Positions 14,846 through 38,821 of a stretch of 64,000 nucleotides of DNA are shown in pieces (positions within the stretch are counted from its first letter, which is position 1; each line of letters begins with the position of its first letter). The DNA lies in contig CBDDFZ010000001.1 of NCBI GenBank assembly GCA_965227515.1, forward strand, positions 1,056,001-1,120,000. The letters are read 5' to 3'. This stretch comes from Alphaproteobacteria bacterium (lineage in GTDB: Bacteria > Pseudomonadota > Alphaproteobacteria > CALKHQ01). The position numbers were made by a program, and so were the translations under genes. The notes under the pieces are model-generated. The model searched no databases. It was not told the origin of the DNA and was given only the letters and a program-made list of their open reading frames with translations.

Positions 14846-14849
14846 GGCA

Positions 14850-15521: not shown

Positions 15522-15594
15522 GTCCGCCTGCCGTCGTGGTGGCCCCAACGAAGGGGCCACCGGTTTCCTGCCACGGTTTTCAAGACATTACGAC

Positions 15595-18074: not shown

Positions 18075-18108
18075 GGCTTCCCTCCCCAGTCCGCCTTTTT
18101 GCGGCGTG

Positions 18109-19551: not shown

Positions 19552-19615
19552 GCCGTTTTCCTTCCGACGTATGTGCTGGCGTGTGCGCTGGCAGGAATGC
19601 GTGCTGACGGGCCGG

Positions 19616-21318: not shown

Positions 21319-21391
21319 GTCCGCCTTCGAAATTGCTGGAGGGGCGCGGCCGCGACGTGCGGCCGCGCCGAGAGTGGGCCGGGCGGGAGGG

Positions 21392-22705: not shown

Positions 22706-22884
22706 TCGCTTTCCTCCCGGTTGCCGGCCGGTTCGGGCGCTTTGGCGGGCAGCGGCGGCACGACGCCGTGCCGGCGGGCGCCCGTCCGGCAATTCGAACA
22801 GGGTAGGTAGAAGCCCCCGGCCGGGAAACAGCGATCTCGTGCGGATTGGCCAAAAAATATCCAGAATGGATAATTGATTATGTG

Positions 22885-24630
22885 TCAGGAAGTAAGGGCG
22901 TTTTCAGTCCGCTGCTGTACGCGTGCCAGTACACCGCGGGGCGGGTGCCGGTGCAGCAGCATGTCGTGGATTTCCTCGCCCAGGATTTCAATCAGGGTGG
23001 AGATGCCGGGCACCGGCGGCCGGGGCCACATGCGCATGAAACCGCGGCTATGGAAATCGTCGATGGCATCGATCATCGGCGAGCGCGCGCGCACCTCGGC
23101 GTCGCGGCAGACGCTGAGCCTGGCGCAGGCCAGGTTTCCGTTCATACTGAACAGCTTCATCACCTCCGGTGAGGTCAGCGAGCGTATCGCCGTCCAGGCC
23201 GCCTCCACCCGTGCAGGCTCGAGATTAGCCGGAATTGCGAGCGCATAGCCGCCCATCGGCGTGATCGGCCGCCCGCGTGGGCCCACCGGATGCGGCAGAT
23301 ATCCCGTTCGCCCGAAGGCCGCGCAGTTTTCGTTGAGCTCGAAGACCGGCGCCAGCAGCGAGTGGGAATAGGCGAAAGCGGACTCGCCACGGGCGAAGGT
23401 GGTCGCGCGGTCGTACCACGCCATGCCGAGGATGTTCGGCGGCGAGTGGTCCATCAGTTCGCGCATGAACTCGGCCGTTTGCAGCGCCTCGTCGCTCAGG
23501 AACTGCGGCACCGGCCGCCAGTCGCGGTCGACCGCCGCATCGAACCCGCCCTCCGATGCGGGAAGGCTCAGCACGCTCTGGCCGAAGGCGGCCATCATCA
23601 TCATGAAGCTGTGGCCGAGCGGCGTGCCGCGCGCGGCGTTCCACGACACGCCCCACATCCGCTCGCGCGTTCTGCTGACCAGCGGCAAGGCCCGCACTAG
23701 GTCTGCCGCCGTCCGCGGCGGCTCCAGGTCCAGGCCCTCCAGCACATCGGTGCGATAAACCAGCATCTCAGCCGTGGTGACGATGGGTACGCCGTAGCTG
23801 CGGCCCAGGTATGAGGCGCTGGAAAGCGCGTCGGGGTAGAAGTCCTCCAGGTCGGTTCCGGCGGATGCGATCAGGTCGTCGAGCGGCCGCAGCACTCCCT
23901 CCGCGGCCAGTTCGCCGAACCAGGGCAGGTCGCAGGCAAGGATGTCGTAGCGCGAACTCGCGAGCCGGGCGTTCTCCAGTATCTGCAGGCGCAACCGGTC
24001 GATGGATAGCGCGCGGCTGCTGATGGCGGTGCCGAGGATCAGCTCGACCTGACGTTTGAGCGTGTTCATCGCGGTGAATGTCGGGTCGGCGTGCAGCAGC
24101 AGGCGCAGGCCCGAGCCCGCATCCAGCCGGCGGTTGAGCACGACCGGCGGGCCGATGATCCGATCCCGGGCGGTCGCGATGCTGCCCCGATCGGCCGCTC
24201 CGCTCTGGGCGACGAAGCTCGCCAGATGTTCCCGAAGCTGTCTGGCCAGGAGACTCCAGCGCCGGAGCAGTTCGTCGGTCGGGTGCAGCGAGAACGACCG
24301 GCCGCTGCGCGTGCGCGGCCGGACCATCACGAAGTCCGATGCCCGCAACCTGTCGATCAGACGCATGGCCGAGCCGTAGCTCATCCCGGAGGCGGCGACG
24401 GCCGACGACGTGGTGACCACCTGGCCAAGGAAATGGCTGCGCAGCAGGTAGAGGATCATTTTCAGACCATGCGGGCCGCTCCGCAGGCCAAAGGTGTCGG
24501 ACACCTCCACGTCGAGCTGTTCCACAAGGTCGAGCACACGAAGCTGCGCGGGATTACCCGGCAGATGCGCGGGACCGACGTCGCCGCGCTCGTAGGGGCC
24601 TTCTGGCTCACGAACGACCGGATGCTTCAT
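22885..24630 (-). CDS. MarR-like wHTH fused to sugar-binding-protein domain (regulator)
   Basis: N-terminal SSAVAASGMSYGSAMRLIDRL...RPRTRSGRSFSLHPT; C-terminal YDILACDLPW, LVYRTDVL, GGYALAIP; no signal peptide. Confidence 0.8.
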   Translation of the reverse strand: MKHPVVREPEGPYERGDVGPAHLPGNPAQLRVLDLVEQLDVEVSDTFGLRSGPHGLKMILYLLRSHFLGQVVTTSSAVAASGMSYGSAMRLIDRLRASDFVMVRPRTRSGRSFSLHPTDELLRRWSLLARQLREHLASFVAQSGAADRGSIATARDRIIGPPVVLNRRLDAGSGLRLLLHADPTFTAMNTLKRQVELILGTAISSRALSIDRLRLQILENARLASSRYDILACDLPWFGELAAEGVLRPLDDLIASAGTDLEDFYPDALSSASYLGRSYGVPIVTTAEMLVYRTDVLEGLDLEPPRTAADLVRALPLVSRTRERMWGVSWNAARGTPLGHSFMMMMAAFGQSVLSLPASEGGFDAAVDRDWRPVPQFLSDEALQTAEFMRELMDHSPPNILGMAWYDRATTFARGESAFAYSHSLLAPVFELNENCAAFGRTGYLPHPVGPRGRPITPMGGYALAIPANLEPARVEAAWTAIRSLTSPEVMKLFSMNGNLACARLSVCRDAEVRARSPMIDAIDDFHSRGFMRMWPRPPVPGISTLIEILGEEIHDMLLHRHPPRGVLARVQQRTENALTS

Positions 24631-24756
24631 CCCGTCAGGTTAGCATGACGAGGCGCTGACGAATGATACCATCCGACAAGATGGACCGCGGCGGTGGGTC
24701 GCCAGCACGCGAAGATCCCAACGGCGACATGCAGGCGAGCCGTCCGGACCATGCGG

Positions 24757-25052
24757 TCACTCCGACCGGTCGTCGGTGGTGAACAGGGCCGCGATCCGCC
24801 AGCCATCGCCGGTTTCCACCGCCAGCATGCTGACGAGAAAGCGCAGCTCGCTCGGCGCGGCGGCCTGGCCGATCACCAGCGTCAGCGGCAGGTGCAGGAA
24901 GCCGCTTCGTCAGAAATGACGACCGGCGTGGCGTTCTCAAGATCCGGCTCCACCCGCAAGACCTCGGACTTCTGGAACACCGCCGTGCGGCTGACTATGG
25001 TGTCGGCACCCCAATAGGTCATGCCGTTGCTGACCCACAGGAATTGCGGCGT
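24757..25052 (-). pseudogene. 5'-truncated, frameshifted NTF2/SnoaL-like gene
   Basis: PQFLWVSNGMTYWGADTIVSR...VISDEA, 1-nt frameshift near 24900, then FLHLPLTLVIG...LRFLVSMLAVETGDGWRIAALFTT*. Confidence 0.65.
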
Positions 25053-25160
25053 GGATACCTCAGCGTCGAGCTCTTCTACCCGGTCGAGTACACGAAGCTG
25101 TACCGGAGCGGCCAAGTGTAGCGCAAGTCCGACGTGATTTGAACTTCGAGGGGCCATTCG
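25053..25160 (-). pseudogene. fragment paralogous to the 5' end of the wHTH-SBP regulator
   Basis: VG...PVQLRVLDRVEELDAEVS versus VG...PAQLRVLDLVEQLDVEVS at about 24500-24580; visible nucleotide similarity. Confidence 0.7.
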
Positions 25161-25258
25161 ACACACGATCTGGTACTCGACTCTTTTCGAGCCACAAGCT
25201 ATGCTGCTCAAAAAGCAGGCAAGGGAGGAAGAAGGATGTAGTGATCGAAGGTGAGGTC

Positions 25259-26488
25259 ATGACCACCCATTACTCCCTGAGCAGCTTTATCCGGCAAGCT
25301 GCAAACCGCCATTTGGCGGAATATGCCGAGCATAATGCCATCGACCTCGGCACCGACATATCGCAGCTTAAACCAAGAACATTCCAGCCTATTTTCGAGG
25401 CAGTCATGGCGCTGCCGGAGGACGCGCGCGCCGCTATAGATGCAGACTTCCGGAAGGTCGCATTGCTGGGCAACCAAGCCGGGTTACAGCACTTGCGCGC
25501 AGAGGCCGACCATAAGGGTTTGGACCTTGGTTCCGCACTGCAGACCCAGAACAGCTTTCTCAACAAAGCGTTCTGGGCCTTCTTGAACCATCGCAACGTC
25601 TTTGACCGAGCATCACGGTTCGCGACGCCGCATCTGACCGGACGCTACTGGAAGCGCGGGCTGCCGCTCGTCAGCGCACCGGGCATCGAACTCGGCGACC
25701 GGGTAGACGTCTTGAGAGAAGCCATCAGCCTTCACTTCTTCAAGGAAGAGGGGCGCGGGCGGGCTTGCAAGGTCGACTACGACGCCCGACGACCGAGCCA
25801 CATGTTCTACGCCTTCCCAGAGGATTACCCCGCCGCCCCGCTGGCCTGGTTGCGCGATGAACTGGCGCCACATCCGTTCCGGCCAGCCTTCGAGGTTGTG
25901 TTTGTGTATCGCGACGATGACGGCACCCTTGACGTGTATTTCGAGGGCGCGAAAGCGAGCGTCGATCAACTGTGGCAATTGTTCGCCAGATCGGTCCTCG
26001 GGCTCACCGACCTGCCGACGCTCACAAAGCCAGCCTACTGGCTGGAGCCGCTAAAGTCGTCCTCGTTCTCGTTCACTTGGCCAATTCAGGCACCTATCAC
26101 CTCCGTTCGAACCAAGCGCCTGACGTTCGCGACGATGGGTGACACGCCGACCAGGGTCTCAGTGACGTCCGATGTCTCGAATGATGGATCCGCTCTTCAC
26201 CGCGCGATCGATCGACTATTCGTTCGAGATGGGCCATCGGTGGGGCGCATGTCGCTCAATCATGCCAGGGTCGTCGGTGCTCAGTTGCAAGCGGTCGTAG
26301 ACCATCACGACGGCACACGGCCCAAAACGCGCTCTTTCGATATCTCAGAGCAGTCTTGCGCTCTGAAGCATGATGGAGATGACCTGCACTTGCGGCACAT
26401 GCTAGCCGCCAGCGGCATTGACCGAACCACAGGTTTTTCAAGTGATGACGCCCCAGCAGGATCGCGCACTCAACGCGCTGCTGAGTGA
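25259..26488 (+). CDS. hypothetical protein (409 aa), element gene A
   Basis: GAGG RBS, ATG 25259; overlaps the next gene; no recognised domain. Confidence 0.85.
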   Translation: MTTHYSLSSFIRQAANRHLAEYAEHNAIDLGTDISQLKPRTFQPIFEAVMALPEDARAAIDADFRKVALLGNQAGLQHLRAEADHKGLDLGSALQTQNSFLNKAFWAFLNHRNVFDRASRFATPHLTGRYWKRGLPLVSAPGIELGDRVDVLREAISLHFFKEEGRGRACKVDYDARRPSHMFYAFPEDYPAAPLAWLRDELAPHPFRPAFEVVFVYRDDDGTLDVYFEGAKASVDQLWQLFARSVLGLTDLPTLTKPAYWLEPLKSSSFSFTWPIQAPITSVRTKRLTFATMGDTPTRVSVTSDVSNDGSALHRAIDRLFVRDGPSVGRMSLNHARVVGAQLQAVVDHHDGTRPKTRSFDISEQSCALKHDGDDLHLRHMLAASGIDRTTGFSSDDAPAGSRTQRAAE

Positions 26489-27446
26489 TTTGATTGCTCG
26501 GCTTGCTGCCTCGGGCGGCGACCCAATCTCAATCCAAAGGGATGAATTCCGACCCCCTCAGCATGGCGGCCTGCGGGTGTTTGAAGCTCAATATCTCCTG
26601 AGTCCCATTGAGCCCCGAAGGTCGGTTATCTGCGACGGCTGCGAGCGCAGATGCCCTATGGAGGTGACATTTGAGGCCAGGCGAGGCAGACCGGCAGACG
26701 CCTTCGTTGTCTGCGACAAGCGCACGGACATAGCTCGAGTTCCAGTTGATATGCGTCGGCTGTCCCGATGGTCGCTATCCCTGCAAACAGTCGGCCACGT
26801 CCTCAAGTGGGTGATGCCAACAAGCCAATATCCTTATCGCCTTGACGGTGACGAGTTCTGGAGACTGGGGCGGTTTGCACAACACAGCCACAAGGATGAA
26901 ACGGTCGACGTGGTCCTCCTGGAGCAACTCGGCGACCAGCCAATGGAAGCCGGCCTCGTGATCGTGCTTTCGCGAACTTCGCAACCCATTGGCGCTGGCG
27001 TTGTAGCTCTACCGGACCTGCTGTTGGTCAAGGACGGCCGCCTGAGCGTCAACAGGACCGCACTCCGCCGCGCCCTGGAAGGGCCTCGCGAAGACGATGG
27101 CCGCATAGCGTGTGAAATCCGCTTCGGCCTTGGCGAAATCCTGCTTGTCAATCACGTGACACGGCAGCGAACCGTCCTTGCGCGTCCAAATTTCAACTCG
27201 TCGAACGACAACGCATTTCAGGTGCTTTTCGCAAAGCCTGGCGTGAGATTCACACTCTCGGAACTTCGCGCGGCCGCAGGGGACCAAACAATCGTAGGCC
27301 TGCACAAATTGGTCGAGAATCTCCATTTCGAAGGGCTGTTAAAGGCGGTCTTTTTCCGCGTATCGAAGGATGCGATCCAGTTTCGAAGACATGTAACCGT
27401 AGGCGAACTTGCCACCCATGGCATCGATCCGAGGGAAATCGTCTAA
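26445..27446 (+). CDS. hypothetical protein with Cys4 Zn motif and C-terminal wHTH-like region, element gene B
   Basis: VICDGCERRC...FVVCDK; C-terminal AFQVLFAKPGVRFTLSELR...; 44-nt overlap with gene A. Confidence 0.8.
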   Translation: MTPQQDRALNALLSDLIARLAASGGDPISIQRDEFRPPQHGGLRVFEAQYLLSPIEPRRSVICDGCERRCPMEVTFEARRGRPADAFVVCDKRTDIARVPVDMRRLSRWSLSLQTVGHVLKWVMPTSQYPYRLDGDEFWRLGRFAQHSHKDETVDVVLLEQLGDQPMEAGLVIVLSRTSQPIGAGVVALPDLLLVKDGRLSVNRTALRRALEGPREDDGRIACEIRFGLGEILLVNHVTRQRTVLARPNFNSSNDNAFQVLFAKPGVRFTLSELRAAAGDQTIVGLHKLVENLHFEGLLKAVFFRVSKDAIQFRRHVTVGELATHGIDPREIV

Positions 27447-27460
27447 CACTGTCGGTTCGC

Positions 27461-27540
27461 TCCCGATCCATCCCCATCCGTCCCTTTCTATCCCCACCAT
27501 GACGACGTGAGCCCGCCTGCGGCCGTATCCGGTCGTCATG
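27461..27540. promoter_or_regulatory. four phased 10-bp repeats plus hairpin upstream of the replication module
   Basis: TCCCGATCCA TCCCCATCCG TCCCTTTCTA TCCCCACCAT, then ATGACGAC...GTCGTCAT inverted repeat overlapping the next ATG. Confidence 0.6.
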
Positions 27541-27720
27541 GCAAGGTCGATTCCCGATCCGCTCGATGTCGTCGCGATGCGGCTGCGCTGCCTCGAAGAC
27601 GCTGACCTGAGCGAGGTGGAAGCGGTCGAAGCCGGGCGCAACTTGGCCGGCTTCATTGCGTTGCTGGCGCGGATCGACGGCGCGCCATCCAAGCGAGGTG
27701 ATGCCAATGAATGTGACTGA
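27538..27720 (+). CDS. small helical hypothetical protein (60 aa)
   Basis: LSEVEAVEAGRNLAGFIALLARID amphipathic helices; overlaps the spoVG-like start. Confidence 0.65.
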   Translation: MARSIPDPLDVVAMRLRCLEDADLSEVEAVEAGRNLAGFIALLARIDGAPSKRGDANECD

Positions 27721-28015
27721 AGTGGAAATCGCGTTCGTTAAGCCGCGAAACGGGCTGATCGCGTTCGCCAGCTTGGTGCTCGATGACCAGCTCTACCTCA
27801 GCGGCATCGCGATCCATCGCAAACTCGACGGCGGCGGCTACCGCTTGACCTACCCCACCCGCAAGATCGGAGACCGGTCGATCGACATCTTCCATCCAAT
27901 CCGGCGGCCAATTGGCCAGGCCATCGAGACGGCCATTCTCGAAAAGCTGAACGACGTAGTGAGCAAGTGCGATGCTGGATACGGTTGCGCTGAGTCTCGA
28001 CACACGCGCCTTTGA
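27707..28015 (+). CDS. SpoVG family nucleic-acid-binding protein
   Basis: MNVTEVEI...LIAFASLVLDD...GIAI...LTYPTRK...DIFHPI...IETAILE; GAGGTG RBS. Confidence 0.85.
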   Translation: MNVTEVEIAFVKPRNGLIAFASLVLDDQLYLSGIAIHRKLDGGGYRLTYPTRKIGDRSIDIFHPIRRPIGQAIETAILEKLNDVVSKCDAGYGCAESRHTRL

Positions 28016-29129
28016 GATCCTCGATCCCGGCCGGTTCAGTCCCTCGGCAGTGGGCCTGCTGCAGCCGCCCTACTACCCGCTCGGCGGCCGAGGTAACATT
28101 GCCTGCGTGCAGAACCCGACCAAGGCCGACTTCGCGGCCGGACGCTACCTGCCGAGGCTGACGCTGGCCAAGCGCAAGGTGCGTGGTGGATTCTCGATCA
28201 CGCTCCGGGTCGAGTTTTCCGCACCCAAGTTGGTCTACGGGAACAACTTCGACGAGCTGACATCGCGCGAGTTCGACGTGGTGGTCGATACGCTGCGCCA
28301 CGCGCTGGCGAGCATGGGTGTTCGGGTCAGCGACTACGACCTACGTGCAGCCAACGTCTCGACGGTGCACTACAGCAAGAATGTCTGCTTCACCGACTAC
28401 ACGACCTGCTCAATGGTGATGCGCGAACTCGACCTGATCGACCTCGACGGTCGCCTGGATCTCTCGCATACCGACTACCGCAACAACGGTCACGCCATAC
28501 GCTATCACGCCAACAGTTTCGAGCTGACGTTCTACGACAAGATGCGCGACCTGGAGAAAGCCAGGTTCAGCGAGAAGCGCGCAATCGAACAAGACAATCG
28601 TATTCAGGCCGACCTGTTCAGCGAGCGGGACGATCTACCGAAGCAGCTCGAGGTCCTGCGGATGGAGGTCCGGCTGGGCAACCGCACCAAAATCAAGGGC
28701 CTGCTGAAGCGCATCGGCGCCGACATCGAGCCGACCTTCGCGGCGCTGTTCGATGCAAGCCTGGCCAAAGACGTGCTGCTGCACTTCTGGGAGCAGATCA
28801 GGCGGCAATTGCCGCTCGCCGGACAGACCGCGGACCGCCGGCCGGAGGAGTTGCTGTCGACCCTCGCCGCTGCTTCGGACGGCAACGCGCGACCCGGCGC
28901 CCTTCTGCAGCAGCTCGGTTGCGTCCTGCTCGTCGCCTCGGTTGGCGTGCGCGGCGCCGGCGCCCTGATGAGCCGCCATTGCAGCAACCGATCCTGGCAA
29001 CGCTACAAACGGCAACTGCGCGAACTGAACATTCCAGCCACGAATCGGTTCAGCGCTCTTGACCAGGTGGGCGACACCCTGTCCAGATTCCACCCCTTGA
29101 GACTCGCCGACATCACCCAACTCACGTGA
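27972..29129 (+). CDS. rolling-circle replication initiator (Rep_trans / phage gene II-X-like)
   Basis: MLDTV, LRVEFSAPKLVYGNNF, VSTVHYSKN, LTFYDK (putative catalytic Tyr), VLRMEVRL. Confidence 0.75.
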   Translation: MLDTVALSLDTRAFEILDPGRFSPSAVGLLQPPYYPLGGRGNIACVQNPTKADFAAGRYLPRLTLAKRKVRGGFSITLRVEFSAPKLVYGNNFDELTSREFDVVVDTLRHALASMGVRVSDYDLRAANVSTVHYSKNVCFTDYTTCSMVMRELDLIDLDGRLDLSHTDYRNNGHAIRYHANSFELTFYDKMRDLEKARFSEKRAIEQDNRIQADLFSERDDLPKQLEVLRMEVRLGNRTKIKGLLKRIGADIEPTFAALFDASLAKDVLLHFWEQIRRQLPLAGQTADRRPEELLSTLAAASDGNARPGALLQQLGCVLLVASVGVRGAGALMSRHCSNRSWQRYKRQLRELNIPATNRFSALDQVGDTLSRFHPLRLADITQLT

Positions 29130-29141
29130 GAGACCACACTG

Positions 29142-31562
29142 ATGGCCATCAAGAAGTCAGAACTCTACGCCTCGCTGTGGGCCAGTTGCGACGAGTTGCG
29201 CGGCGGCATGGATGCCAGCCAGTACAAGGACTACGTCCTGGTGCTGCTGTTCATCCGCTACATAAGCGACAAGTATGCCGGCGTGCCCTATGCGCCGATC
29301 ACGGTACCCGAGGGCGCCAGCTTCAAGGACATGGTCGCCCTGAAGGGCAAGCCGGACATCGGCGATCAGATCAACAAGAAGATCATCGGTCCGCTGGCCA
29401 ACGCGAACCAAGAGCTGTCGCAGTCCGACTTCCCCGACTTTAACGACCACACCAAGCTGGGCAGCGGCAAGGAGATGGTTGACCGGCTGACCAACCTGGT
29501 CGCTATCTTCGAGCGCAAGGCGCTGGATTTCTCCAGGAACCGGGCCGACGGCGACGACATCCTGGGCGACGCCTACGAGTATCTGATGCGCCACTTCGCC
29601 ACCGAGAGCGGCAAGAGCAAGGGCCAGTTCTACACGCCGGCCGAGGTAAGCCGGGTGATGTCCCAGATCATCGGCATCCGAAGCGCCGTCACCGGGCCCG
29701 ACACCACCGTCTACGACCCGACCTGCGGCTCCGGGTCGCTGCTGCTGAAGGTGGCCGACGAGGCGAGAACCACGGTCACGCTCTACGGCCAGGAGAAGGA
29801 CGCCACCACCAGCGGCTTGGCGCGAATGAACATGATCCTGCACAACGTGCCTACTGCGCTGATCATGCAGGGCAACACGCTGACCGACCCGAAGTACAGG
29901 GACGGCGAGGCCCTGAAGACCTTTGACTACGTCGTCGCCAATCCGCCCTTCTCGGACAAGCGCTGGAGCACGGGGCTCGACCCGCTGCACGACCCGCATC
30001 ATCGCTTCCAGCCGTTCGGCGTGCCGCCGGCCAAGCAGGGCGACTATGCCTATCTGCTGCACATCGTGCGATCGCTGAAGAGCACGGGCGCCGGCGCCTG
30101 CATCCTGCCGCATGGCGTGCTGTTCCGAGGCCATGCCGAGGCCGACATCCGCCGGGCCCTGGTGCGCAAGGGCTACATCAAGGGCATCATCGGGCTGCCG
30201 GCCAACCTGTTCTACGGGACCGGCATCCCGGCCTGTATCGTCGTGGTCGACAAGCGCGACGCCGCGGCCCGCGAGGGCATCTTCATGATCGACGCCAGAG
30301 CCGGGTTCATGAAGGACGGGCCGAAGAACCGGCTTCGGTCCCAGGACATCCACAAGATCGTCGACGCCTTCAACCGGCAGCAGGAGATCCCGAGCTATGC
30401 CCGCATGGTCGGCTACGCCGAGATCAGGAAGAATGACTTCAACCTCAACATCCCGCGCTACATCGACAGCCGGCAGCCGGAGGACCTGCAGGACATCGAG
30501 GGCCACCTGAAGGGCGGGATCCCGGTCTCCGACATCGATGCGCTGCAGCGCTACTGGGACGTCTGTCGCGGCCTCAGGACAACCCTGTTCCGGGACAACC
30601 GCCCCGGCTACGTTGACCTCGCTGTCGACAAGGCGGAAATCAACGCAACGATCTACGGCCATCCTGAGTTCTCTGCCTTCGTCGCAGACATGAACACCCA
30701 CTTCGCCGCCTGGAGGGACCGCAGCGCCGCGACTCTGAAGGCTCTCGCCGCCGGGTGCGACCCGAAGCAGGTGGTCTTCGACCTTTCGGAGGACCTGCTG
30801 GCGCACTATGGCGGCAAGCCGCTGATTAACGGCTACGACGTCTACCAGCACCTGATGGACTATTGGGCCGACACGATGCAGGACGACTGCTACCTGATCG
30901 CCGCCGACGGCTGGCGGGCCGAGACCTATCGCGTCATCGAGACAGTCAAGAGCGGCAAGAAGAAGGGCCAGGAGAAGGACGTAGGCTGGGCGTGCGATCT
31001 GGTTCCCAAGCCCTTCATTGTCGAACGGTATTTTGCAGACGAGCAGGAAGAAATCGAGCTGCTCACCGCTGACATCGAAAGTGTCATCGCGCAGCTGGCC
31101 GAACTGGAGGAGGAGCACGGCGGAGAGGACGGCGCATTTTCCGAGTTCGAGAAGGTCAACAAGGCCAACGTAGCGGCTCGCCTAAAGGAGATCCGGGGCG
31201 ACAGGGACGCTAGAGACGAGGCCGCCGCGCTCAATGACTGGATCAAGTTCGACAGGCAAGAGACCGATCTCAAGAAGCGTTTGAAGGATGCTGAGGCCGC
31301 GCTCGACGCCAAGGCTTACGCCCACTATCCGAAACTGACCGAGCCCGAGGTCAAGGCGCTGGTGGTGGACGACAAGTGGCTCGCCACACTGGATGCAGCC
31401 ATCCATGGCGATATGAATCGCGTGAGCCAGCAGCTCTCTACGCGCGTGAAAGAGCTTGTTGAACGATACGAGACAGCTCTGCCGCAATTGGCCAACCGCG
31501 TGGCGGAACTTGAAGACAAGATAAAACACCATCTCGAAAGGATGGGGTTTGCATGGACCTAA
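29142..31562 (+). CDS. hsdM: type I RM methyltransferase subunit
   Basis: GQFYTP, YDPTCGSGSLL, VANPPFS (m6A), LPHGVLFRG. Confidence 0.96.
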   Translation: MAIKKSELYASLWASCDELRGGMDASQYKDYVLVLLFIRYISDKYAGVPYAPITVPEGASFKDMVALKGKPDIGDQINKKIIGPLANANQELSQSDFPDFNDHTKLGSGKEMVDRLTNLVAIFERKALDFSRNRADGDDILGDAYEYLMRHFATESGKSKGQFYTPAEVSRVMSQIIGIRSAVTGPDTTVYDPTCGSGSLLLKVADEARTTVTLYGQEKDATTSGLARMNMILHNVPTALIMQGNTLTDPKYRDGEALKTFDYVVANPPFSDKRWSTGLDPLHDPHHRFQPFGVPPAKQGDYAYLLHIVRSLKSTGAGACILPHGVLFRGHAEADIRRALVRKGYIKGIIGLPANLFYGTGIPACIVVVDKRDAAAREGIFMIDARAGFMKDGPKNRLRSQDIHKIVDAFNRQQEIPSYARMVGYAEIRKNDFNLNIPRYIDSRQPEDLQDIEGHLKGGIPVSDIDALQRYWDVCRGLRTTLFRDNRPGYVDLAVDKAEINATIYGHPEFSAFVADMNTHFAAWRDRSAATLKALAAGCDPKQVVFDLSEDLLAHYGGKPLINGYDVYQHLMDYWADTMQDDCYLIAADGWRAETYRVIETVKSGKKKGQEKDVGWACDLVPKPFIVERYFADEQEEIELLTADIESVIAQLAELEEEHGGEDGAFSEFEKVNKANVAARLKEIRGDRDARDEAAALNDWIKFDRQETDLKKRLKDAEAALDAKAYAHYPKLTEPEVKALVVDDKWLATLDAAIHGDMNRVSQQLSTRVKELVERYETALPQLANRVAELEDKIKHHLERMGFAWT

Positions 31563-32845
31563 GCAACGAGTATAAGAAGACAGAGTTGGGAAGACTTCCA
31601 AAGAATTGGAAGATTGAACCTGCGCGCAACTTTTCGACAATAAGAACAGGTCCATTTGGAACAGTCCTCAAGGCATCAGAGTATTCAAAGACAAGCGGTG
31701 TACCGCTTATCTCAGTCGGCGAAATTCGCGAAGGATTCCTGGAAATTTCCGACCGCACGCCGCTCGTTTCTGACGTTGTCACGCGACGACTGCCTCAGTA
31801 TGTCTTAAGAGGGGGCGACATCGTTTTTGGAAGAAAAGGTGCAGTTGATAGGTCTTCGTTAATAAGAGAGTGGCAAGCCGGTTGGTTCTTAGGATCTGAT
31901 GGCATATACATGAGGCTGAACATAGATTTACATGAGGCCTATGTAGCATATCAATTTCAGAGCGCGCGTGTCCAAAGTTGGCTTCTTCAGTACGCTCTCG
32001 GCACTACGATGCCGTCGCTTAATCAAAAAATACTTGGCGAAGTTCTTATCCCTCTCCCGGCCACAAGAGCCGAACAGGAAGCTATCGCCGAGGCGTTGGG
32101 CGACGCAGATGCCCTCATCGAATCCCTAGAGCAACTCATCTCCAAAAAGCGCCAGATCAAGCAGGGCGCCATGAAGGTGCTGCTCACCGGCCAGCGGCGC
32201 CTGCCTGGATTTGACGGGAAGTGGAAGGTCAAGACATTTGCGGAGCTGTTCACCTTCAGCGGTGGCTATACCGCTTCACGCGCCCAGCTTTCCGGGGAAG
32301 GACACTGTTACCTGCACTACGGAGACATCCATGGCGCGACGAAGACATGTGTTGATACGAGCGTCGACTATCAGGATATACCTAAGCTCGATATCGATCT
32401 CATGCAGGTCCCGCCTAGCGCTATACTAAAAGACGGCGACGTCGTTTTCGTTGATGCTTCGGAAGATGACGAGGGAACGAGCAAACATATCGTCATTGCA
32501 AACCGCAACAATGTGCCGTTCATAGCTGGCCTTCACACAATTGTTGCCAAGAGTAATACGAACGACCTCGTTCATGAATATCGCCGTTACTGTTTTCAAA
32601 CGACAGCGATCCAACAGCAGTTCCGATTTTACGCGGTTGGAACGAAGGTATCTGGCATCAGCAAGGGCAATATTCCCAAGCTATCCCTTCCGGTCCCCCC
32701 AACTGCCGAACAAATCGCCATTGCCAGCGTCCTGTCCGACATGGATGCCGAGATCGAGGGACTGGAGGCCAAGCTCGTCAAGGCCCGGCTCATCAAGCAA
32801 GGCATGATGCAGGAGCTGCTGACGGGAAGGGTTCGATTGGTATGA
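31553..32845 (+). CDS. hsdS: type I RM specificity subunit
   Basis: Two TRDs, each followed by conserved EQ.AIA..L.D.DA.IE.LE...K.R.IKQG.M..LLTG helices. Confidence 0.95.
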   Translation: MDLSNEYKKTELGRLPKNWKIEPARNFSTIRTGPFGTVLKASEYSKTSGVPLISVGEIREGFLEISDRTPLVSDVVTRRLPQYVLRGGDIVFGRKGAVDRSSLIREWQAGWFLGSDGIYMRLNIDLHEAYVAYQFQSARVQSWLLQYALGTTMPSLNQKILGEVLIPLPATRAEQEAIAEALGDADALIESLEQLISKKRQIKQGAMKVLLTGQRRLPGFDGKWKVKTFAELFTFSGGYTASRAQLSGEGHCYLHYGDIHGATKTCVDTSVDYQDIPKLDIDLMQVPPSAILKDGDVVFVDASEDDEGTSKHIVIANRNNVPFIAGLHTIVAKSNTNDLVHEYRRYCFQTTAIQQQFRFYAVGTKVSGISKGNIPKLSLPVPPTAEQIAIASVLSDMDAEIEGLEAKLVKARLIKQGMMQELLTGRVRLV

Positions 32846-35800
32846 CCCCCATCGGCCAACCCGAACGCGCGACCCAGAACAGGGTGATTGCCCTGTTCCG
32901 CGATGAGCTTGACTACCGGTTTTTGGGCGCCTGGAGCGACCGGGTCGGCAACAGCAACATCGAGGAAGGTCTGCTGTCCGAGTGGCTGACAGGACGCGGA
33001 TATTCGGGCGCGCAGATCAACGCGGCGCTGCACCGGCTTCGTACCGAGGCGAGCAACCACAATAGGACGCTCTACGGCAACAACGCCGCCGTCCACTCCC
33101 TGCTGCGGTACGGCGTTCCGGTCATGACCGAGGCCGGTAAGCCAACCGAGACCGTCCTCCTGATCGACTGGGACGACCCGGTCAGCAACGACTTCGCAAT
33201 CGCCGAGGAGGTGACGCTGTCGGGAGACCTGACGCGCCGACCGGACATCGTGCTCTACGTCAACGGCCTCGCGATTGGCGTGCTGGAGCTGAAGAACAGC
33301 CGCGTCTCGATCGGCGACGGGATCCGGCAGTGCCTCTCCAACCAGAAGCCGGAGTTCCATCAGTGGTTTTTCACCACGGTGCAGTTTATCTTCGCCGGCA
33401 ACGATTCCGAGGGCTTGAAGTACGGCACGACGGGCACTGAGGAAAAGTACTTCCTGAAATGGAAGGAGGACGAAGCGGACGACTCCCGCTTCAAGCTGGA
33501 CAAGTACCTGTTGAAGCTGTGCGAGAAGCACCGGCTGATCGAGCTGATGCACGACTTCATTGTGTTCGACGGCGGGATCAAGAAGCTACCGCGCCCGCAC
33601 CAGTATTTCGGGATCAAGAAGGCACAGGCCTTCGTCGAGCGCCGCGAGGGCGGGATCATCTGGCACACCCAGGGCAGCGGCAAGAGCATCGTCATGGTGC
33701 TGCTGGCCAAGTGGATCCTGGAGACCAACCCCCATGCCCGCGTCGCGGTGATCACCGACCGCGACGAGCTGGACCGGCAGATCGAGCGCGTGTTCCGCGA
33801 CGCCGGCGAGCCGATCAAGCGGACCAGCAGCGGCCGCGACCTGATGCGGCAGCTGGGGGAGGCCACGCCGCGGCTGCTGTGCTCCCTGGTGCACAAGTTT
33901 GGCGGCAGGGGCGTCGACGACTTCGAGGCGTTCATCCGGGACCTGGAGGCCCAGCCGAGCCGGGCCGTGGGCGAGGTCTTCGTATTCGTGGACGAATGCC
34001 ATCGGACCCAGAGCGGCCGGCTGCATCGGGTGATGAAGGCAATGATGCCGGACGCGGTCTTCATCGGCTTCACGGGCACGCCACTATTGCGCAGGGACCG
34101 GCAGACCAGCCTGGAGGTCTTCGGCGGCTACATCGACACCTACAAGTTCAGCGAGGCGGTCGAGGACGAGGTGGTGCTGGACCTCGTGTACGAGGCCCGC
34201 GACATCGACCAGCGCCTTGGCTCCGAGAACAAGATCGACGCCTGGTTCGAGGCGAAGACCAAGGGGCTGAACGACTGGCAGCGGGAGGAGCTGAAGCAGA
34301 AGTGGGGCACGATGCAGGTCGTGCTGAGCTCCCGCTCGCGCATGGACCGGGTCGTGGCCGACATCCTGTTCGACTTCAGCGTCAGGCCGCGCCTGTCCAA
34401 CCAGCGTGGCAATGCGATCCTGGTGGCGTCGAGCATCTACGAGGCTTGCAAGTACTTTGCCCTGTTCCAGAAGACGCCGTTCAAGGGCAAGTGCGCGATC
34501 GTGACGTCATACAATCCCCAGGCGCAGCACGTGACCCAGGAGGAGACCGGCGCCAACAGCGAGACCGACAGGCAGTTCATCTACAACACCTACATCGAGC
34601 TGCTGAAGGGCATCGAAGCCAAGCCCAACATGACGAAGACCGAGGCCTACGAGGAATGGGCCAAGGCGCTGTTCATCAAGGAGCCCGCCAACATGCGGTT
34701 GCTGGTGGTGGTGGACAAGCTGCTGACCGGCTTCGATGCACCGCCCTGCACTTATCTCTACATCGATAAGTCGATGCAGGACCACGGGCTGTTTCAGGCG
34801 ATCTGCCGGACCAACCGACTGGACGGCGACGACAAGGATTTCGGCTTCATCGTCGACTACAAGGCCCTGTTAAAGAAGGTCGAGAACGCGATCGCGGTCT
34901 ACACCTCGGAGCTGGACCGCAGCGCCGGTGGCGCCGACCCCGAAGTATTGCTGCAGGACCGGCTGAAGAAGGGGCGGGAGCGGCTGGACAACGCCATCGA
35001 GGCGCTGGCGCTGCTCTGCGAAGAGGTCGAGCCGCCCAAGGGCGAGCTGGAGCACATCCACTATTTCTGCGGCAACACCGAGATCCCGACCGACCTTCAG
35101 GACAGGGAGCCACTGCGGTCGGCGCTTTACAAGCAGACGGTCGCCCTCGTGCGCGCCTACGCCAATATCGCGGACGAGCTCGAGGCAGCCGGGTACAGCG
35201 GCGCCGACGTTGCTCGCATCAAGCAGCTGCTCGACCAGTACCTCGACATCCGCGAGATCGTCCGCAACGCCAGCGGGGAGACGATCGACCTGAAGGCCTA
35301 CGAGGCCGATATGCGGCATCTGATCGACACCTACATCGAGGCCGACGAGCCCCGGAAGATCTCTCCCTTCGATAACATGAGCCTAGTCGACCTGATCGTG
35401 AAGACAGGCATCGCCGACGCGGTTGCCTCGCAGCTCGGTGGGCTTAGGGGCGACAGGGACGCGATCGCCGAGACAATCGAGAATAACGTGCGCAGCAAGA
35501 TCATCAGGGAGCAGCTGAACGACCCGGCGTTCTACGAATCCATGTCGGCACTGCTCGACGAGATCATCGACGCGCGAAAGGCCAAGGCCATGGCCTACGA
35601 AGAATATCTCCGGCGGATCGGCGAGCTGGCGAAGATGGTTGCCACCGGCCAGGCCGAGGATACGCCGAAGGCGCTCGATACGCCCGGCAAGCGGGCCCTG
35701 TGGAACAACCTCGGCAGGGACGAGGCGCTTGTTCTGAAGATCGATGAAGCCGTCCGGGAGACTCGACCCGAGGGCTGGCGCGGCATCCAGTCTCGCGAGA

Positions 35801-35892
35801 ACGTTATCAAGGCGGCCCTCTATGGCGTGCTGCAGGATCAGGAGGAGGTCGAACGCATCTTCCTCGTGATCAAGGCGCAGAGCGAATACTGA
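32842..35892 (+). CDS. hsdR: type I RM restriction subunit
   Basis: RPDIVLYVNG...ELK nuclease; HTQGSGKS, DECHR, FTGTP, LLTGFDAP, QAICRTNR. Confidence 0.96.
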   Translation: MTPIGQPERATQNRVIALFRDELDYRFLGAWSDRVGNSNIEEGLLSEWLTGRGYSGAQINAALHRLRTEASNHNRTLYGNNAAVHSLLRYGVPVMTEAGKPTETVLLIDWDDPVSNDFAIAEEVTLSGDLTRRPDIVLYVNGLAIGVLELKNSRVSIGDGIRQCLSNQKPEFHQWFFTTVQFIFAGNDSEGLKYGTTGTEEKYFLKWKEDEADDSRFKLDKYLLKLCEKHRLIELMHDFIVFDGGIKKLPRPHQYFGIKKAQAFVERREGGIIWHTQGSGKSIVMVLLAKWILETNPHARVAVITDRDELDRQIERVFRDAGEPIKRTSSGRDLMRQLGEATPRLLCSLVHKFGGRGVDDFEAFIRDLEAQPSRAVGEVFVFVDECHRTQSGRLHRVMKAMMPDAVFIGFTGTPLLRRDRQTSLEVFGGYIDTYKFSEAVEDEVVLDLVYEARDIDQRLGSENKIDAWFEAKTKGLNDWQREELKQKWGTMQVVLSSRSRMDRVVADILFDFSVRPRLSNQRGNAILVASSIYEACKYFALFQKTPFKGKCAIVTSYNPQAQHVTQEETGANSETDRQFIYNTYIELLKGIEAKPNMTKTEAYEEWAKALFIKEPANMRLLVVVDKLLTGFDAPPCTYLYIDKSMQDHGLFQAICRTNRLDGDDKDFGFIVDYKALLKKVENAIAVYTSELDRSAGGADPEVLLQDRLKKGRERLDNAIEALALLCEEVEPPKGELEHIHYFCGNTEIPTDLQDREPLRSALYKQTVALVRAYANIADELEAAGYSGADVARIKQLLDQYLDIREIVRNASGETIDLKAYEADMRHLIDTYIEADEPRKISPFDNMSLVDLIVKTGIADAVASQLGGLRGDRDAIAETIENNVRSKIIREQLNDPAFYESMSALLDEIIDARKAKAMAYEEYLRRIGELAKMVATGQAEDTPKALDTPGKRALWNNLGRDEALVLKIDEAVRETRPEGWRGIQSRENVIKAALYGVLQDQEEVERIFLVIKAQSEY

Positions 35893-36608
35893 TGGTCACC
35901 CAGCTCGACCTTGGCGGCATCGCGGTCGACGTGGTGTTCAAGGATATCAAGAACGTCCATTTGAGCGTGCACCCCCCGACCGGGCGTGTGCGCATCTCGG
36001 CGCCGACCCGGACCAACCTGGACGCCATCCGCGCCTTCGCGATTTCGAAGCTCGGCTGGATCAAGCAGCAGCAAGGCAAGCTGCGGCAGCAGGAGCGCGA
36101 AAGCCCGCGCGAATACCTCGAGCGCGAAAGTCACCATGTGTGGGGCCGGCGCTACCTGATGGAGATCAGGGAGGCCGAGGCCCCGCCACTGGTCGAGCTG
36201 ACGCATCGCAAGTTGGTTCTTCGCGTCCGTCCCGGCACCGATGAGGAGGGCAGAGAAGCGGTCGTCGCCGAGTGGTACCGCGGCCAACTCAAGCAAGCCG
36301 CCCGGGCCTGGATCATCAGGTGGGAGCCGCGTCTGGGCGTTAAGGTCCGGCGGCTGTTCGTGCAGCGCATGAAGACGAAGTGGGGCGGCTGCAACCCTGA
36401 GGCCGGAAGCATCCGCCTTAACTCGGAGCTCGCCAAGAAGCCTCCTGAATGCGGGGAGTACGTCCTGGTGCATGAAATGGCCCACCTGATCGAGCGGCAT
36501 CACAATGATCGGTTCGTCGGCCTTATGGATCGACACCTGCCGCAGTGGCGGGCCCACCGCGATGCCCTGAACGCCGCGCCGCTGGCGCACGAGAGTTGGA
36601 CCTACTGA
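35892..36608 (+). CDS. YgjP/DUF45 (M48-like) metal-dependent hydrolase
   Basis: MKTKWGGCN, YVLVHEMAHL...HNDRF; TGATG overlap with hsdR. Confidence 0.9.
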   Translation: MVTQLDLGGIAVDVVFKDIKNVHLSVHPPTGRVRISAPTRTNLDAIRAFAISKLGWIKQQQGKLRQQERESPREYLERESHHVWGRRYLMEIREAEAPPLVELTHRKLVLRVRPGTDEEGREAVVAEWYRGQLKQAARAWIIRWEPRLGVKVRRLFVQRMKTKWGGCNPEAGSIRLNSELAKKPPECGEYVLVHEMAHLIERHHNDRFVGLMDRHLPQWRAHRDALNAAPLAHESWTY

Positions 36609-36664
36609 TCGAACCGACGCGCCACTTGCTACGTAGCGCGTATCGGCCTATATGGACGGAATGA

Positions 36665-36946
36665 ATGATCCTCTCGTTCAGATGCAAGGAGACGGAACGC
36701 ATCTGGCAGGGTCTTGCCAGCCGGAAGTTCCCGGCCGCCATCCAGGATCGCGCGCTGCGCAAGCTGCGTCAGCTGGACGCGTCGCGGACCATGGACGACC
36801 TGCGCAACCCGCCGGGCAATCGGCTCGAGGCCCTGAGAGCGGACCGCGCAGGCCAATGGAGCATCCGCATCAACGACCAGTGGCGCATCTGCTTCGTCTG
36901 GCGGGAGGGCGACGCGAGCGACGTCGAGATCGTCGACTACCATTGA
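36665..36946 (+). CDS. higB: HigB toxin (RelE/ParE family)
   Basis: DLRNPPGNRLEAL...SIRINDQWRICF...VEIVDYH. Confidence 0.95.
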   Translation: MILSFRCKETERIWQGLASRKFPAAIQDRALRKLRQLDASRTMDDLRNPPGNRLEALRADRAGQWSIRINDQWRICFVWREGDASDVEIVDYH

Positions 36947-36974
36947 AGGCCGTAGTGAACCGAAAGATGTAGCG

Positions 36975-37277
36975 ATGGGCCAGTTGCGCAACCCACATCC
37001 GGGGGAGATCCTCCGGCATGAGTTCCTCGACGAGATCGGCATGAGCCAGAACGCGCTTGCCCAGGCGATCGGCGTGCCGGGCAACCGCATCCACGCCATC
37101 GTCAACGGCACCCGCTCCGTGACGGCGGAGACCGACCTGCGACTGTGCCGGTTCTTCGGGTTGTCAGAAGGCTATTTCCTACGCCTGCAGAACGCCCACG
37201 ACACCATGGCGGCCAAACGGCGCATAGGAGCCGAGGTCGAACAGATTGCGCCCTACAAGCCCCAGGAGGCGGCCTGA
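36975..37277 (+). CDS. higA: HigA antitoxin
   Basis: HPGEILRHEFL...SQNALAQAIGV...IVNGTRSVTAETDLRL. Confidence 0.95.
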   Translation: MGQLRNPHPGEILRHEFLDEIGMSQNALAQAIGVPGNRIHAIVNGTRSVTAETDLRLCRFFGLSEGYFLRLQNAHDTMAAKRRIGAEVEQIAPYKPQEAA

Positions 37278-37280
37278 GCC

Positions 37281-38780
37281 ATGAAAGCCATCATCCTCGC
37301 GCGCGTCTCAACCAAGGAGCAGGAAGAGGGCCATTCGATCGGCGCCCAGCGTCAGCGGCTCGCCGACCATTGCGCCCGCAAGGGCCTGGATGTGATCCGA
37401 ACCTTCGAGTTGATCGAGTCGTCCACCAAGGGCGAGCGGCGCAAATTCATGGAAATGATTGAGTTTGCCAAAGGCCAAGGCGAAACGGTCGCAATCGTTG
37501 CAGATGCCGTCGACCGGTTCCAGCGCAGTTTCCGCGAGTCCGTGTTGATCGACGAGCTGATCCGCAGGGAGCAGGTCGAACTGCACTTCTATCGAGAGAA
37601 CATGGTCATCGGGAAGGACGCAACGTCGACCGACATCATGCGCTGGGACTTTTCGGTCATGGGTGCCAAGTCCTACACCCTGAATCTATCCGAGAACGTG
37701 CGGCGCAGCCTGGAGTACAAGCGCCGCAACGGCGAATGGAGCGGCAAGGCGCCGCTTGGTTACCTGAACGCCCGCGATGCCGACAACCGCAGCACGCTGG
37801 TGCATGACCCAGAGCGTGCCTTCCTTGTCCGAATGCTGTTCGAGGATTATGCCAAAGGCTGCTTCTCGATCAGCGGCGACCTTGTCCGAATGACCCGGGA
37901 ATGGGGCCTGACCAACAAGACACGCAAGGGCGGCTTTTTGACGGGCGGTCAGATCCATACGATCCTGACGAACCCGTTCTACCACGGCGAGATGTGCATC
38001 AAGGGGAAGCTCTACCCTCACAAATACGAGCCGTTGATCACCAAGGACCTGTTCGACCGCTGCGCGGCAGTGCGCGAGGGCGCGGCGCGCCCGACGGCGA
38101 CGCGGTACTCAGAGAAGCCCTTTGTGTTTCGCGGGCTGCTGAAGTGCGCCATCTCGGGACGGACTGTCACCAGCGACCTGAAGAAGGGCCGGCACGTCTA
38201 CCTGATCTGTCGCGACCCCGACGATCCTGAACGCAAACTCTACGTGCCCGAAGGCGACGTTCTGGACCAGGTGATGGAGAGCTTCCGGTCGATTCAGATC
38301 CCGCCGGCGCTGCTCGAGGCATTGCTGACGCACATGAAGGCGAGCCACGAGGCCGAGAACCGATTCCACAAGGACGCCATCACCGGCCTGCGGGGCGAGC
38401 ACGACAAGATCCGCGATCGGCTCGACGCGCTGCTTGATATGCGGCTCGACCAGAGTATTACGCAGGCTGAGTACGACAAAAAAGCGCGTGACCTGAAAGA
38501 CCGCAAGGCTGAGATTGCGGCGCGGATCGAGCAGCACCAGGACGGCGAGTTGACCTTCCGCACCACGCTGGAAAGCTTGATATCTCTGGCCTCACGCGCG
38601 GCCGACCTGTTTGAGCGTTCGAACATCGACCAAAAGCGGCAGTTGCTCGCTTTCGTGTTTTCGAACCTGCGGCTCAGGGGCAGAAAGCTAGAGTTTTCAA
38701 TGCGCTCGCCCTTCGACCTGATGGTCGGCCGGGCCGATTATCCAGATTGGCTGGGGGACCTGGATTCGAACCAGGACTAA
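37281..38780 (+). CDS. large serine recombinase (integrase); last 10 codons antisense to tRNA-Gln
   Basis: ARVSTKEQ (catalytic Ser), DRFQRS, APLGY, ILTNPFYHG recombinase domain, degenerate Zn ribbon, coiled coil. Confidence 0.95.
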   Translation: MKAIILARVSTKEQEEGHSIGAQRQRLADHCARKGLDVIRTFELIESSTKGERRKFMEMIEFAKGQGETVAIVADAVDRFQRSFRESVLIDELIRREQVELHFYRENMVIGKDATSTDIMRWDFSVMGAKSYTLNLSENVRRSLEYKRRNGEWSGKAPLGYLNARDADNRSTLVHDPERAFLVRMLFEDYAKGCFSISGDLVRMTREWGLTNKTRKGGFLTGGQIHTILTNPFYHGEMCIKGKLYPHKYEPLITKDLFDRCAAVREGAARPTATRYSEKPFVFRGLLKCAISGRTVTSDLKKGRHVYLICRDPDDPERKLYVPEGDVLDQVMESFRSIQIPPALLEALLTHMKASHEAENRFHKDAITGLRGEHDKIRDRLDALLDMRLDQSITQAEYDKKARDLKDRKAEIAARIEQHQDGELTFRTTLESLISLASRAADLFERSNIDQKRQLLAFVFSNLRLRGRKLEFSMRSPFDLMVGRADYPDWLGDLDSNQD

Positions 38781-38821
38781 GCGGGTCAGAGCCGCTCGTT
38801 CTACCGTTAAACTATCCCCCA
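38748..38821 (-). tRNA. tRNA-Gln (CTG), intact with CCA
   Basis: TGGGGGATAGTTTAACGGTAGAACGAGCGGCTCTGACCCGCTTAGTCCTGGTTCGAATCCAGGTCCCCCAGCCA; cloverleaf, anticodon CTG. Confidence 0.97.

Follow-up and report, generated by a model that had tools for sequence, protein, structure and literature searches.

An island at the CCA end of an alphaproteobacterial tRNA-Gln gene whose attP site probably lies inside its own serine integrase gene

We describe a genomic island in a stretch of 64,000 nucleotides (hereafter the window) from an Alphaproteobacteria bacterium (assembly GCA_965227515.1, contig CBDDFZ010000001.1, positions 1,056,001 to 1,120,000 of the forward strand), and the integrase gene, int, by which the island abuts a tRNA-Gln gene. 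The gene, the tRNA and the two borders of the island are listed below; the att arms are assignments from sequence, and int encodes a large serine recombinase (LSR).

37281..38780, + strand: int, LSR, integrated form of 499 amino acids (open reading frame list; Pfam Resolvase and Recombinase)
38748..38821, - strand: tRNA-Gln(CUG), intact; its acceptor and T arm would form the B' arm of attB (ARAGORN)
38748..38754, + strand: predicted attR core TGGCTGG, antisense of the CCA, the discriminator and the first acceptor bases (ARAGORN; sequence comparison)
38715..38747, + strand: putative P arm of attP, left of the core at attR, within the int codons for about PFDLMVGRADYPD; extent estimated
16172..16178, + strand: predicted attL core TGGCTGG, to which the crossover must be confined (identical run of 7 nt from TGG)
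16172..16270, + strand: putative P' arm of attP and coding sequence of a 32-residue tail (homologous tails are contiguous with int in P0006, P0017, P0023 and L019/P0098)
16140..16171, + strand: putative B arm of the former attB, chromosomal and 3' of the tRNA before insertion, left of the core; extent estimated from the size that LSR sites usually have; no resemblance to the DNA 3' of tRNA-Gln in G001 and G002
16172..38754, + strand: integrated island, 22,576 bp core to core, flanked by two TGGCTGG copies (at 16172 and 38748), with the single exact P'-type site in the window

The int open reading frame (ORF) begins MKAIILARVSTKEQ and ends DYPDWLGDLDSNQD (a longer stretch of the same end in the ORF list reads ...GRADYPDWLGDLDSNQD), and its product matches Pfam Resolvase (PF00239, E 5e-17, residues 3-153) and Recombinase (PF07508, E 2.5e-08, residues 177-266). 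With a resolvase-type catalytic domain and a Recombinase domain both present, it is by sequence an LSR; R8 is invariant and S10 near-invariant across 57 aligned sequences. ARAGORN calls a single tRNA in the window, the tRNA-Gln(ctg), with anticodon CUG, at 38748-38821 (-). The + strand from 38748 reads TGG CTG GGG GAC CTG GAT TCG AAC CAG GAC TAA, and since the TGG at 38748-38750, which is codon W490 of int, is the antisense of the encoded CCA, the final 10 codons of int and its stop are tRNA antisense, as an earlier note made from the letters of this DNA had stated. The tRNA is the same in 74/74 nt as the tRNA-Gln of G001, a genome of the same family with no LSR match, so the insertion keeps the tRNA sequence unchanged. 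The earlier note had also suggested that convergent tRNA transcription may silence int in the integrated state. A promoter and terminator scan of 36400-39000 gave signal at or below shuffle level.

The other border lies at 16172, where the + strand reads TGG CTG GCC TTC CTG GAT ACA GTT CGA ACC and continues to a TGA. The frame from 16172 holds 32 codons, WLAFLDTVRTERYQEIVGLGSGILVLELKATA, with its stop at 16268-16270, and 489 residues of int followed by these 32 would give the 521-residue form predicted for an excised circle; the same coordinates and both protein lengths had been proposed in the earlier note and stand. Between the tRNA end and the left site, identity is confined to the 7 nt from TGG (TGGCTGG), with 0 identical bases to their left, while CCTGGAT and TCGAACC are present at both sites, the left site having 5 additional bases between them; the two tails thus share WL..LD through an element arm that mimics the tRNA arm. 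The sequence TGGCTGGNNNNCCTGGAT, with at most 1 mismatch, occurs at exactly 2 sites in the window (16172 and 38748), compared with a mean of 0.07 in shuffled sequences and two matches in 0/100 shuffles, and GATACNNTTCGAACC matches exactly at 16187 and nowhere else in the window. The resemblance between the two sites is beyond chance. In the integrated state the tail-coding DNA stands within a 39-codon ORF with an ATG of its own (16151-16270; MRTDFRP followed by the tail); this start is not conserved, and stops interrupt the upstream frames at other attL sites.

Relatives of int carry the same junction undivided. L019, a 2.2-kb contig with no tRNA and an LSR 63% identical to that of the window, reads ...HQNW LALVDTIRTNYYNEIIGLATFFPSFTKG, the same form as the database protein P0098, and P0006, which is 78% identical, ends WLAFLDTVRTERFTEIVDLRDQILELAA. 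Both read ...W LAFLDTVRTER..., and 12 residues are identical to the left-junction frame of the window. Five relatives also yielded a far site matching an integrated copy: in G139 (int 61% identical, tRNA-Pro) at 4,952 bp, in G090 (42%, tRNA-Arg) at 7,938 bp, in G265 (33%, tRNA-Gln) at 17,765 bp, in L082 (tRNA-Asn) at 9,814 bp, and in L058/G401 (tRNA-Pro) at about 13.8 kb by coordinate subtraction. Across the window and these five relatives, the tail at the far site is in frame and of the same type in 6/6 attL/attR pairs, and the core in all six is an identity that starts at TGG and runs for 6-7 nt, with 0-2 identical bases on its left. Contiguous relatives and paired borders thus uphold both the placing of attP inside int and the reading frame across the junction.

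The arms of these sites follow a pattern familiar from other LSRs. In 6/6 pairs the motif xGAAC stands at an offset of 19 in the tRNA arm (B') and of 24 in the element arm (P'), that is, 5 bp further out. In LSR sites the motif for the zinc ribbon stands 5 bp closer to the centre of attB than to that of attP (Rutherford et al. 2013, PMC3783163), and the match of the xGAAC shift to this architecture supports 16172 as the second half of attP. The xGAAC motif is T-loop sequence read in antisense (GGTTCGAA), which suggests, as a reading of the sites, that the T-loop is what the zinc-ribbon domain recognises, the choice of tRNA being set by the acceptor-proximal bases.

The left border might instead be misplaced, with 16172 a relic of another element and the true border near 25000. 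G+C is host-like from 16000 to 25000 and falls below the flanks only from about 25000 (it is lower over 25000-39000), and as its attL-proximal gene the G139 element has a homologue of the ORF at 25139-26488. However, a search for a second att site near 25000 found none: 24600-25200 holds no P'-like site, and the window has a single exact P' motif, at 16187; the core at 16172 matches the tRNA-Gln core over 7 nt, and the tail matches the closest attP-type relatives over 12 residues. Furthermore, by the established site selectivity of LSRs (PMC3783163), attR cannot serve an LSR as the target of a second insertion. We consider a border near 25000 highly improbable. A 55-nt direct repeat with 80% identity (24499-24553 and 25053-25107, 554 nt apart) lies where G+C drops, and 24700-25140 resembles a piece copied from the 5' region of the solute-binding gene at 22885-24630.

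A tblastx comparison of the window with the tRNA-Gln flanks of G001, G002, G003, G012 and G036 showed synteny on the ppx side only, and no empty attB of the species was obtained from these five relatives. G001 and G002, which belong to the same family but to another genus, have unrelated sequence 3' of tRNA-Gln, no LSR match and no synteny with the left flank of the window. In G003 (L015, G003:C123, about 3300-3405) the tRNA-Gln is preceded by a remnant ...MRSPFDLMVD, the end of a family LSR; the whole-protein search gave no match there, and the remnant looks, from these residues, like what is left of an element that occupied this site earlier.

We therefore come to a layout that we hold to be very probable: an LSR island sits at the CCA end of tRNA-Gln, its attP is located in int, and prophage and circle encode forms of 499 and 521 amino acids. 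The island's own LSR would have inserted it at the extreme 3' end of tRNA-Gln(CUG), comprising the CCA, the discriminator and the first acceptor bases. In this scheme attP would lie wholly within the 3' end of int, with codons about 478-489 as its P arm, codons W490-L491 as the crossover core of 6-7 bp and the next nine or so codons as its P' arm; the latter would mimic the acceptor and T arm of the tRNA with xGAAC 5 bp further out, as expected if a zinc-ribbon reads both sites. Integration would spare the tRNA, part the last 32 codons from int and leave them 22.6 kb away at attL, so that the prophage-state enzyme would have 499 residues with 10 of tRNA-antisense origin, and the excised circle would restore 521. 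The predicted circle junction reads ...GATTATCCAGAT-TGGCTGG-CCTTCCTGGAT..., in frame.

Several observations weigh against this layout. Support for the in-frame junction comes, by sequence comparison, from relatives rather than from a sequenced circle or an empty site of the strain, and the public contigs that contain the strain (X1 and X2) cover attL as the integrated form, the X2 piece spanning 16028-16237. Over 12000-31999, X10 and X11 matched in short spurious pieces only, and among the joints listed, whose sides are 20-32 letters long, none falls at 16172. An attL was recovered for only 2/40 in-frame integrated loci, with at most 10 kb of flank covered. The left 9 kb of the island is host-like in G+C. 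In addition, attP-type genes are also found in mid-contig in very large contigs (L094, 231 kb; L106, 350 kb), so the attP-type form is not always an excised circle.

Beyond the layout, we lean, with moderate confidence, towards a reading in which selection maintains the long tail within the full-length enzyme and its removal upon integration would make a state-specific isoform. To examine the tail, sites were chosen on tail residues 1-10 and on an ORF of 24-50 codons only; 28/37 candidate sites were kept, giving 25 non-redundant tails, and the 9/37 dropped were chance matches, ORFs too short at 1-18 codons, or frames that had met no stop by codon 50. Residues 1-10 follow the pattern W-x3-[VL]-[DN]-x-[FLVI]-R-T and are co-extensive with the P' half-site. 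In codons 11-22 of the 25 tails, mean pairwise nucleotide identity by codon position is 0.289/0.416/0.278; this second-position peak is the pattern expected from selection for hydrophobic residues, and from it the long tail looks translated. L/I/V (or F) occupies columns 16-19 in 17-20 of the 25 tails, and column 20 is Q in 10/25. Tail lengths range over 27-49 codons and cluster at 27-37 codons in 19/25, hosts rich in A+T included (G+C was 0.39-0.58 in the five tails measured). G090 keeps V-D-x-L-R-T with the codons GTG GAC .. TTG AGA ACT, where others have GTT GAT .. NTT CGA ACC.

Against these signs of a peptide stands, in the first place, the overlap of residues 1-10 with the P' half-site, by which the conservation of these residues may reflect constraint on the DNA and not on the protein. 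By its nature the length filter discards broken or decayed tails, and related tails are not independent samples. Tails in the integrated state follow no rule of sequence or length, with anything from 1-3 to over 40 residues after W, so the C-terminus must tolerate almost any sequence in the prophage state. An AlphaFold2 model of P0006 (attP form, 57-row alignment) has a mean pLDDT (predicted local distance difference test) of 81.9, with strands at 297-323 followed by long helices at 324-459, and gives residues 481-517 a pLDDT of 43-59, with no confident fold for the tail. The overlap could accordingly be neutral: attP would lie at or over the 3' end of int in a compact module, the frame would run to the first stop it meets, and the isoforms would be alike and carry no regulatory meaning, the conservation of the tail being due to the P' binding site in its first third and to shared ancestry in the rest. 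That integrated tails vary freely while int is mostly intact (91/120 best homologues), and that the tail diverges strongly past residue 10 into two or more types, agree with such neutrality, as does the low model confidence. The period-3 conservation with its second-position peak, the recurrent hydrophobic block at columns 16-19, the clustered lengths, the excess of -AA ends described below and the peptide motif kept with different codons in G090 speak against it, and we regard a neutral overlap as rather doubtful, if a serious contender.

Under the reading that the tail is selected, what might the two isoforms do differently? Tails end in -AA in 7/25 DNA-derived cases and in 5/10 attP-type database proteins, compared with 204/5,106 long ORFs of this genome (4.0%), and no other dipeptide recurs. 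The tag of the host transfer-messenger RNA is ANDNEIALAA, so that -AA ends resemble the host ssrA tag. We infer that stability is the likeliest difference between the isoforms, favoured because many relatives' tails end in the ssrA-like -AA that integration removes, and that a difference in competence for integration as opposed to excision is less likely. The tail of the window itself ends in -KATA, and 18/25 tails lack an -AA end, both of which count against a degradation signal. The earlier note had drawn an analogy to switches with att inside a repressor gene; it holds in part, as the layout fits and -AA ends are enriched among relatives, while the -KATA end of the window's own tail does not agree with it. 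Going further, the tail swap might itself be a directionality switch, the circle enzyme being competent for attP x attB and short-lived, and the prophage enzyme stable and competent, or poised, for attL x attR; we think this improbable. Were it true, a clade of LSRs that targets tRNA genes would need no separate directionality factor, each recombination rewriting the enzyme for the reverse reaction, and a near-universal T-loop serving as the zinc-ribbon motif would leave a scaffold that could be retargeted among at least 12 tRNA types through acceptor-proximal contacts only.

The zinc ribbon has no Pfam match in int, and no sequence match was found to the C-terminal domains of solved LSRs; among solved structures only the N-terminal domain matches, the best being TP901-1 Int (E 6.8e-05).

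The arrangement recurs across a family of integrases. Of 401 genomes sampled from the class, 20 (19 besides the window genome) contain a homologue at E <= 1e-30, at 20 loci besides that of the window. A convergent tRNA (Pro, Arg, Gln, Asn or Asp) overlaps the end of the ORF in 11/20; the rest comprise one contiguous form (L019), one locus cut by a contig end, one tRNA-like tail without a called tRNA, and six with neither a tRNA nor a contiguous-form tail, namely L024 (34% identity) and five at 26-30%. Among species-representative genomes, a convergent tRNA lies at the ORF end in 56/80 loci (in the other 24 no tRNA was called), and in 40 of the 56 the ORF includes the TGG of CCA in its own frame. 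The tRNAs of these 56 loci cover 12 amino-acid types: Gln 20, Ser 9, Asn 7, Glu 7, Pro 3, Ala 2, His 2, Arg 2, and one each of Phe, Asp, Lys and Leu.

Protein ends were surveyed in the best 120 of 1,295 database proteins, and they split, as the earlier note had suggested an alignment of homologues might reveal, into a WLG(D)... tRNA-antisense type and a WLxFLDTxRT type, the long tail being conserved. Ends of the tRNA-antisense type occur in 91/120 (76 of tRNA-Gln, with WLGD and stop in 48; 6 of tRNA-Pro, WSGR; 9 other tRNA-like), and a long attP-type tail in 9/120, to which P0111 may be added without the W; the remainder are 4 other ends, 13 truncated or fused proteins and 3 without W (P0111 included). 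A region-restricted protein search for further long tails added only P0121, a fused remnant. Record titles are mostly alphaproteobacterial and Rickettsiales metagenome-assembled genomes, and also include Legionella, Parachlamydiaceae, Larkinella and Spirosoma. In phage and plasmid collections the best matches (H1, H2 and H16) are integrated forms at tRNA-Leu, tRNA-Glu and tRNA-Asn, and no phage or small plasmid among the matches has the attP form. Five genomes of 1.9-2.3 Mb (G401-G405; loci L136-L163) hold 3-8 P'-type sites each, 28 in total compared with 6 for a reversed-pattern control, and their differing cores (TGGCGG, TGGTGG and TGGTCG) point to several such elements per genome, at different tRNAs.

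Some members of the family depart from this pattern. L023 (G080:C3), 38% identical, ends WLEQLDSNQ, and to the eye the DNA beyond resembles the antisense of tRNA-Asn; ARAGORN and Rfam both report no tRNA beside this homologue. A gut-associated sub-branch (L103, L108, L112, L114, L115, L133 and others) crosses into tRNA-Glu or tRNA-Gln in a frame that does not match the CCA and reads the tRNA's own T-loop as ...G(I/T)RTH..., and L120, an apparent unintegrated form of a related gene with another reading frame across the site, ends ...EKLAA. On the 365-kb 'plasmid 24' record of Legionella adelaidensis (L166, 1934-4546), a family LSR is integrated at tRNA-Asn, directly preceded by a tyrosine recombinase gene, so that two recombinase families stand side by side at one tRNA. 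The int of P0041 is 73% identical to that of the window, but its tail, WLPFLDTYRTMCSAPAPAMRRILENIRELRFAA, matches the attL tail of G265 (L048-L050), whose int is only 33% identical. In an integrated element the codons of the tail lie at the end opposite to int, and elements sharing a tRNA target may, from this mismatch, exchange the tail.

How does this layout compare with known systems? The enzyme resembles the LSRs of A118/LI, phiC31 and Bxb1 (PMC3783163) in its Resolvase and Recombinase domains, its short identical core and the 5-bp motif shift (6/6), and the P0006 model predicts a long helical insert after the recombinase domain; it is unlike them in that the target is the CCA end of tRNA genes and attP lies inside the int ORF. 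In mycobacteriophage BPs, attP lies within an ORF from which integration removes a C-terminal degradation tag, and Int is also tagged (Broussard and Hatfull, PMC3694055). Its integration-dependent immunity shares with the present system an attP in an ORF and two states with different C-termini, and the ssrA-like -AA ends of 7/25 DNA-derived and 5/10 database tails might by analogy act as a degron as well. Unlike in BPs, where the gene cut is a repressor and the enzyme a tyrosine integrase, here a serine integrase cuts its own gene, the islands are non-phage and belong to Alphaproteobacteria and others, and the tail of the window ends in -KATA.

A recombination site within the recombinase gene together with a tRNA target is also found in archaeal tyrosine integrases of the SSV type, and self-disrupting recombinases are stated to be exclusively archaeal (PMC8371274). 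Those enzymes are of the tyrosine type and are divided into two large fragments, whereas here the system is bacterial and serine-type, and 489/521 residues stay together. By analogy, integration could be suicidal: the tail would be needed for activity, the 499-residue form would be inactive, and excision would depend on a full-length enzyme supplied in trans. The SSV-like position of attP inside int agrees with such a lock-in, as do some decayed copies (the G003 remnant, a 136-residue remnant in L031, L061 with an in-frame stop, P0037 and P0050) and the absence of an excised form of the strain from the public contigs holding it. However, the catalytic and DNA-binding domains are all intact and only 32/521 residues are exchanged; most integrated copies, at 55-85% identity, keep an open frame as far as W, suggesting that selection continues or that mobility is recent; and the multiple P'-type sites in several small genomes suggest ongoing mobility. 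We judge a lock-in to be quite unlikely.

As in other islands at tRNA genes, an intact tRNA stands at one border with int adjoining, and a repeat of the tRNA 3' end at the far border. Islands of tyrosine integrases duplicate 15-50 nt of the tRNA; here, by contrast, the common stretch is no longer than 6-7 nt, and beyond it the element arm imitates the T arm in a shifted register. So far there is little record of serine recombinases at tRNA genes: a predicted serine-recombinase site at tRNA-Met in Paracoccus phage vB_PamS_Pami6 was the only such site predicted in a survey of Paracoccus, and the available part of that account makes no mention of an attP inside int (PMC6536676). In the literature covered, with supplements and most subscription journals outside its scope, no description was found of an LSR with attP in its own ORF or of an LSR clade targeting tRNA CCA ends; the site tables of the TIGER/Islander papers and of the Paracoccus virome paper could hold such cases. 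The layout is thus apparently a widespread, undescribed variant of a known principle, working like the BPs, SSV and LSR systems without belonging to any of them.

Serine integrases are valued as tools for their short sites and one-way reactions, and setting the direction of an LSR without an accessory factor is a design problem. By placing attP in the integrase frame, the clade would have every integration and excision rewrite the C-terminus of the enzyme, and if the tail affects stability or direction, this would amount to a minimal, self-contained state memory for a recombinase. Even with a neutral tail, the clade shows wide use of tRNA genes by serine integrases and a targeting mode that combines a 6-7-bp core at the CCA end with a T-loop mimic shifted by 5 bp, and it offers natural att/int pairs by the dozen for conserved sites in tRNA genes. 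It would also correct annotation, since database proteins of '493-aa' and '499-aa' would be prophage-state truncations of an enzyme of roughly 520 residues.

The remaining genes of the island, as assigned by a Pfam scan, are the following.

17049-18263, - strand: zinc alcohol dehydrogenase (Pfam; host-like G+C)
19616-21256, - strand: ABC permease (Pfam; host-like G+C)
21392-22792 and 22885-24630, - strand: two solute-binding proteins (Pfam; host-like G+C)
25139-26488, 26418-27446 and 27972-29129, + strand: three ORFs with no match in the Pfam scan
29142-31562, + strand: hsdM, type I restriction-modification (Pfam N6_Mtase, 1.6e-98)
31553-32845, + strand: hsdS (Pfam Methylase_S, 8.1e-21)
32842-35892, + strand: hsdR (Pfam SWI2_SNF2, 2.3e-69, with HSDR_N)
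35892-36608, + strand: YgjP-like metallopeptidase (Pfam YgjP-like, 1.8e-57)
36665-36946, + strand: higB toxin (Pfam HigB-like, 2.6e-18)
36975-37277, + strand: higA antitoxin (Pfam HTH_3, 3.7e-08); its stop lies 3 nt before the int start

The cargo with host-like G+C forms a block spanning 17049..24630 (-). No phage genes were found among the island ORFs scanned with Pfam, and no candidate for a directionality factor was identified. A higB-higA pair also stands immediately 5' of int in the 5-kb G139 element (L052, G139:C11 155-3155), with 61-63% amino acid identity, and given the 3-nt gap after higA, int may be transcribed from a self-repressed higBA promoter. The two elements have in common only int, higBA and one gene of no assigned function, the ORF at 25139-26488, a relative of the gene that lies nearest attL in the G139 element (tblastx, 29% over 145 amino acids). 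Just outside the island, the ORF at 15595-16116 (-) encodes 173 amino acids with about 30 Asp/Glu at its C-terminus and no Pfam match; the Asp/Glu run is encoded by a GTC/CTC repeat with a period of 9-15 nt (15586-15693), and the ORF adjoins a two-component pair (13454-15560).

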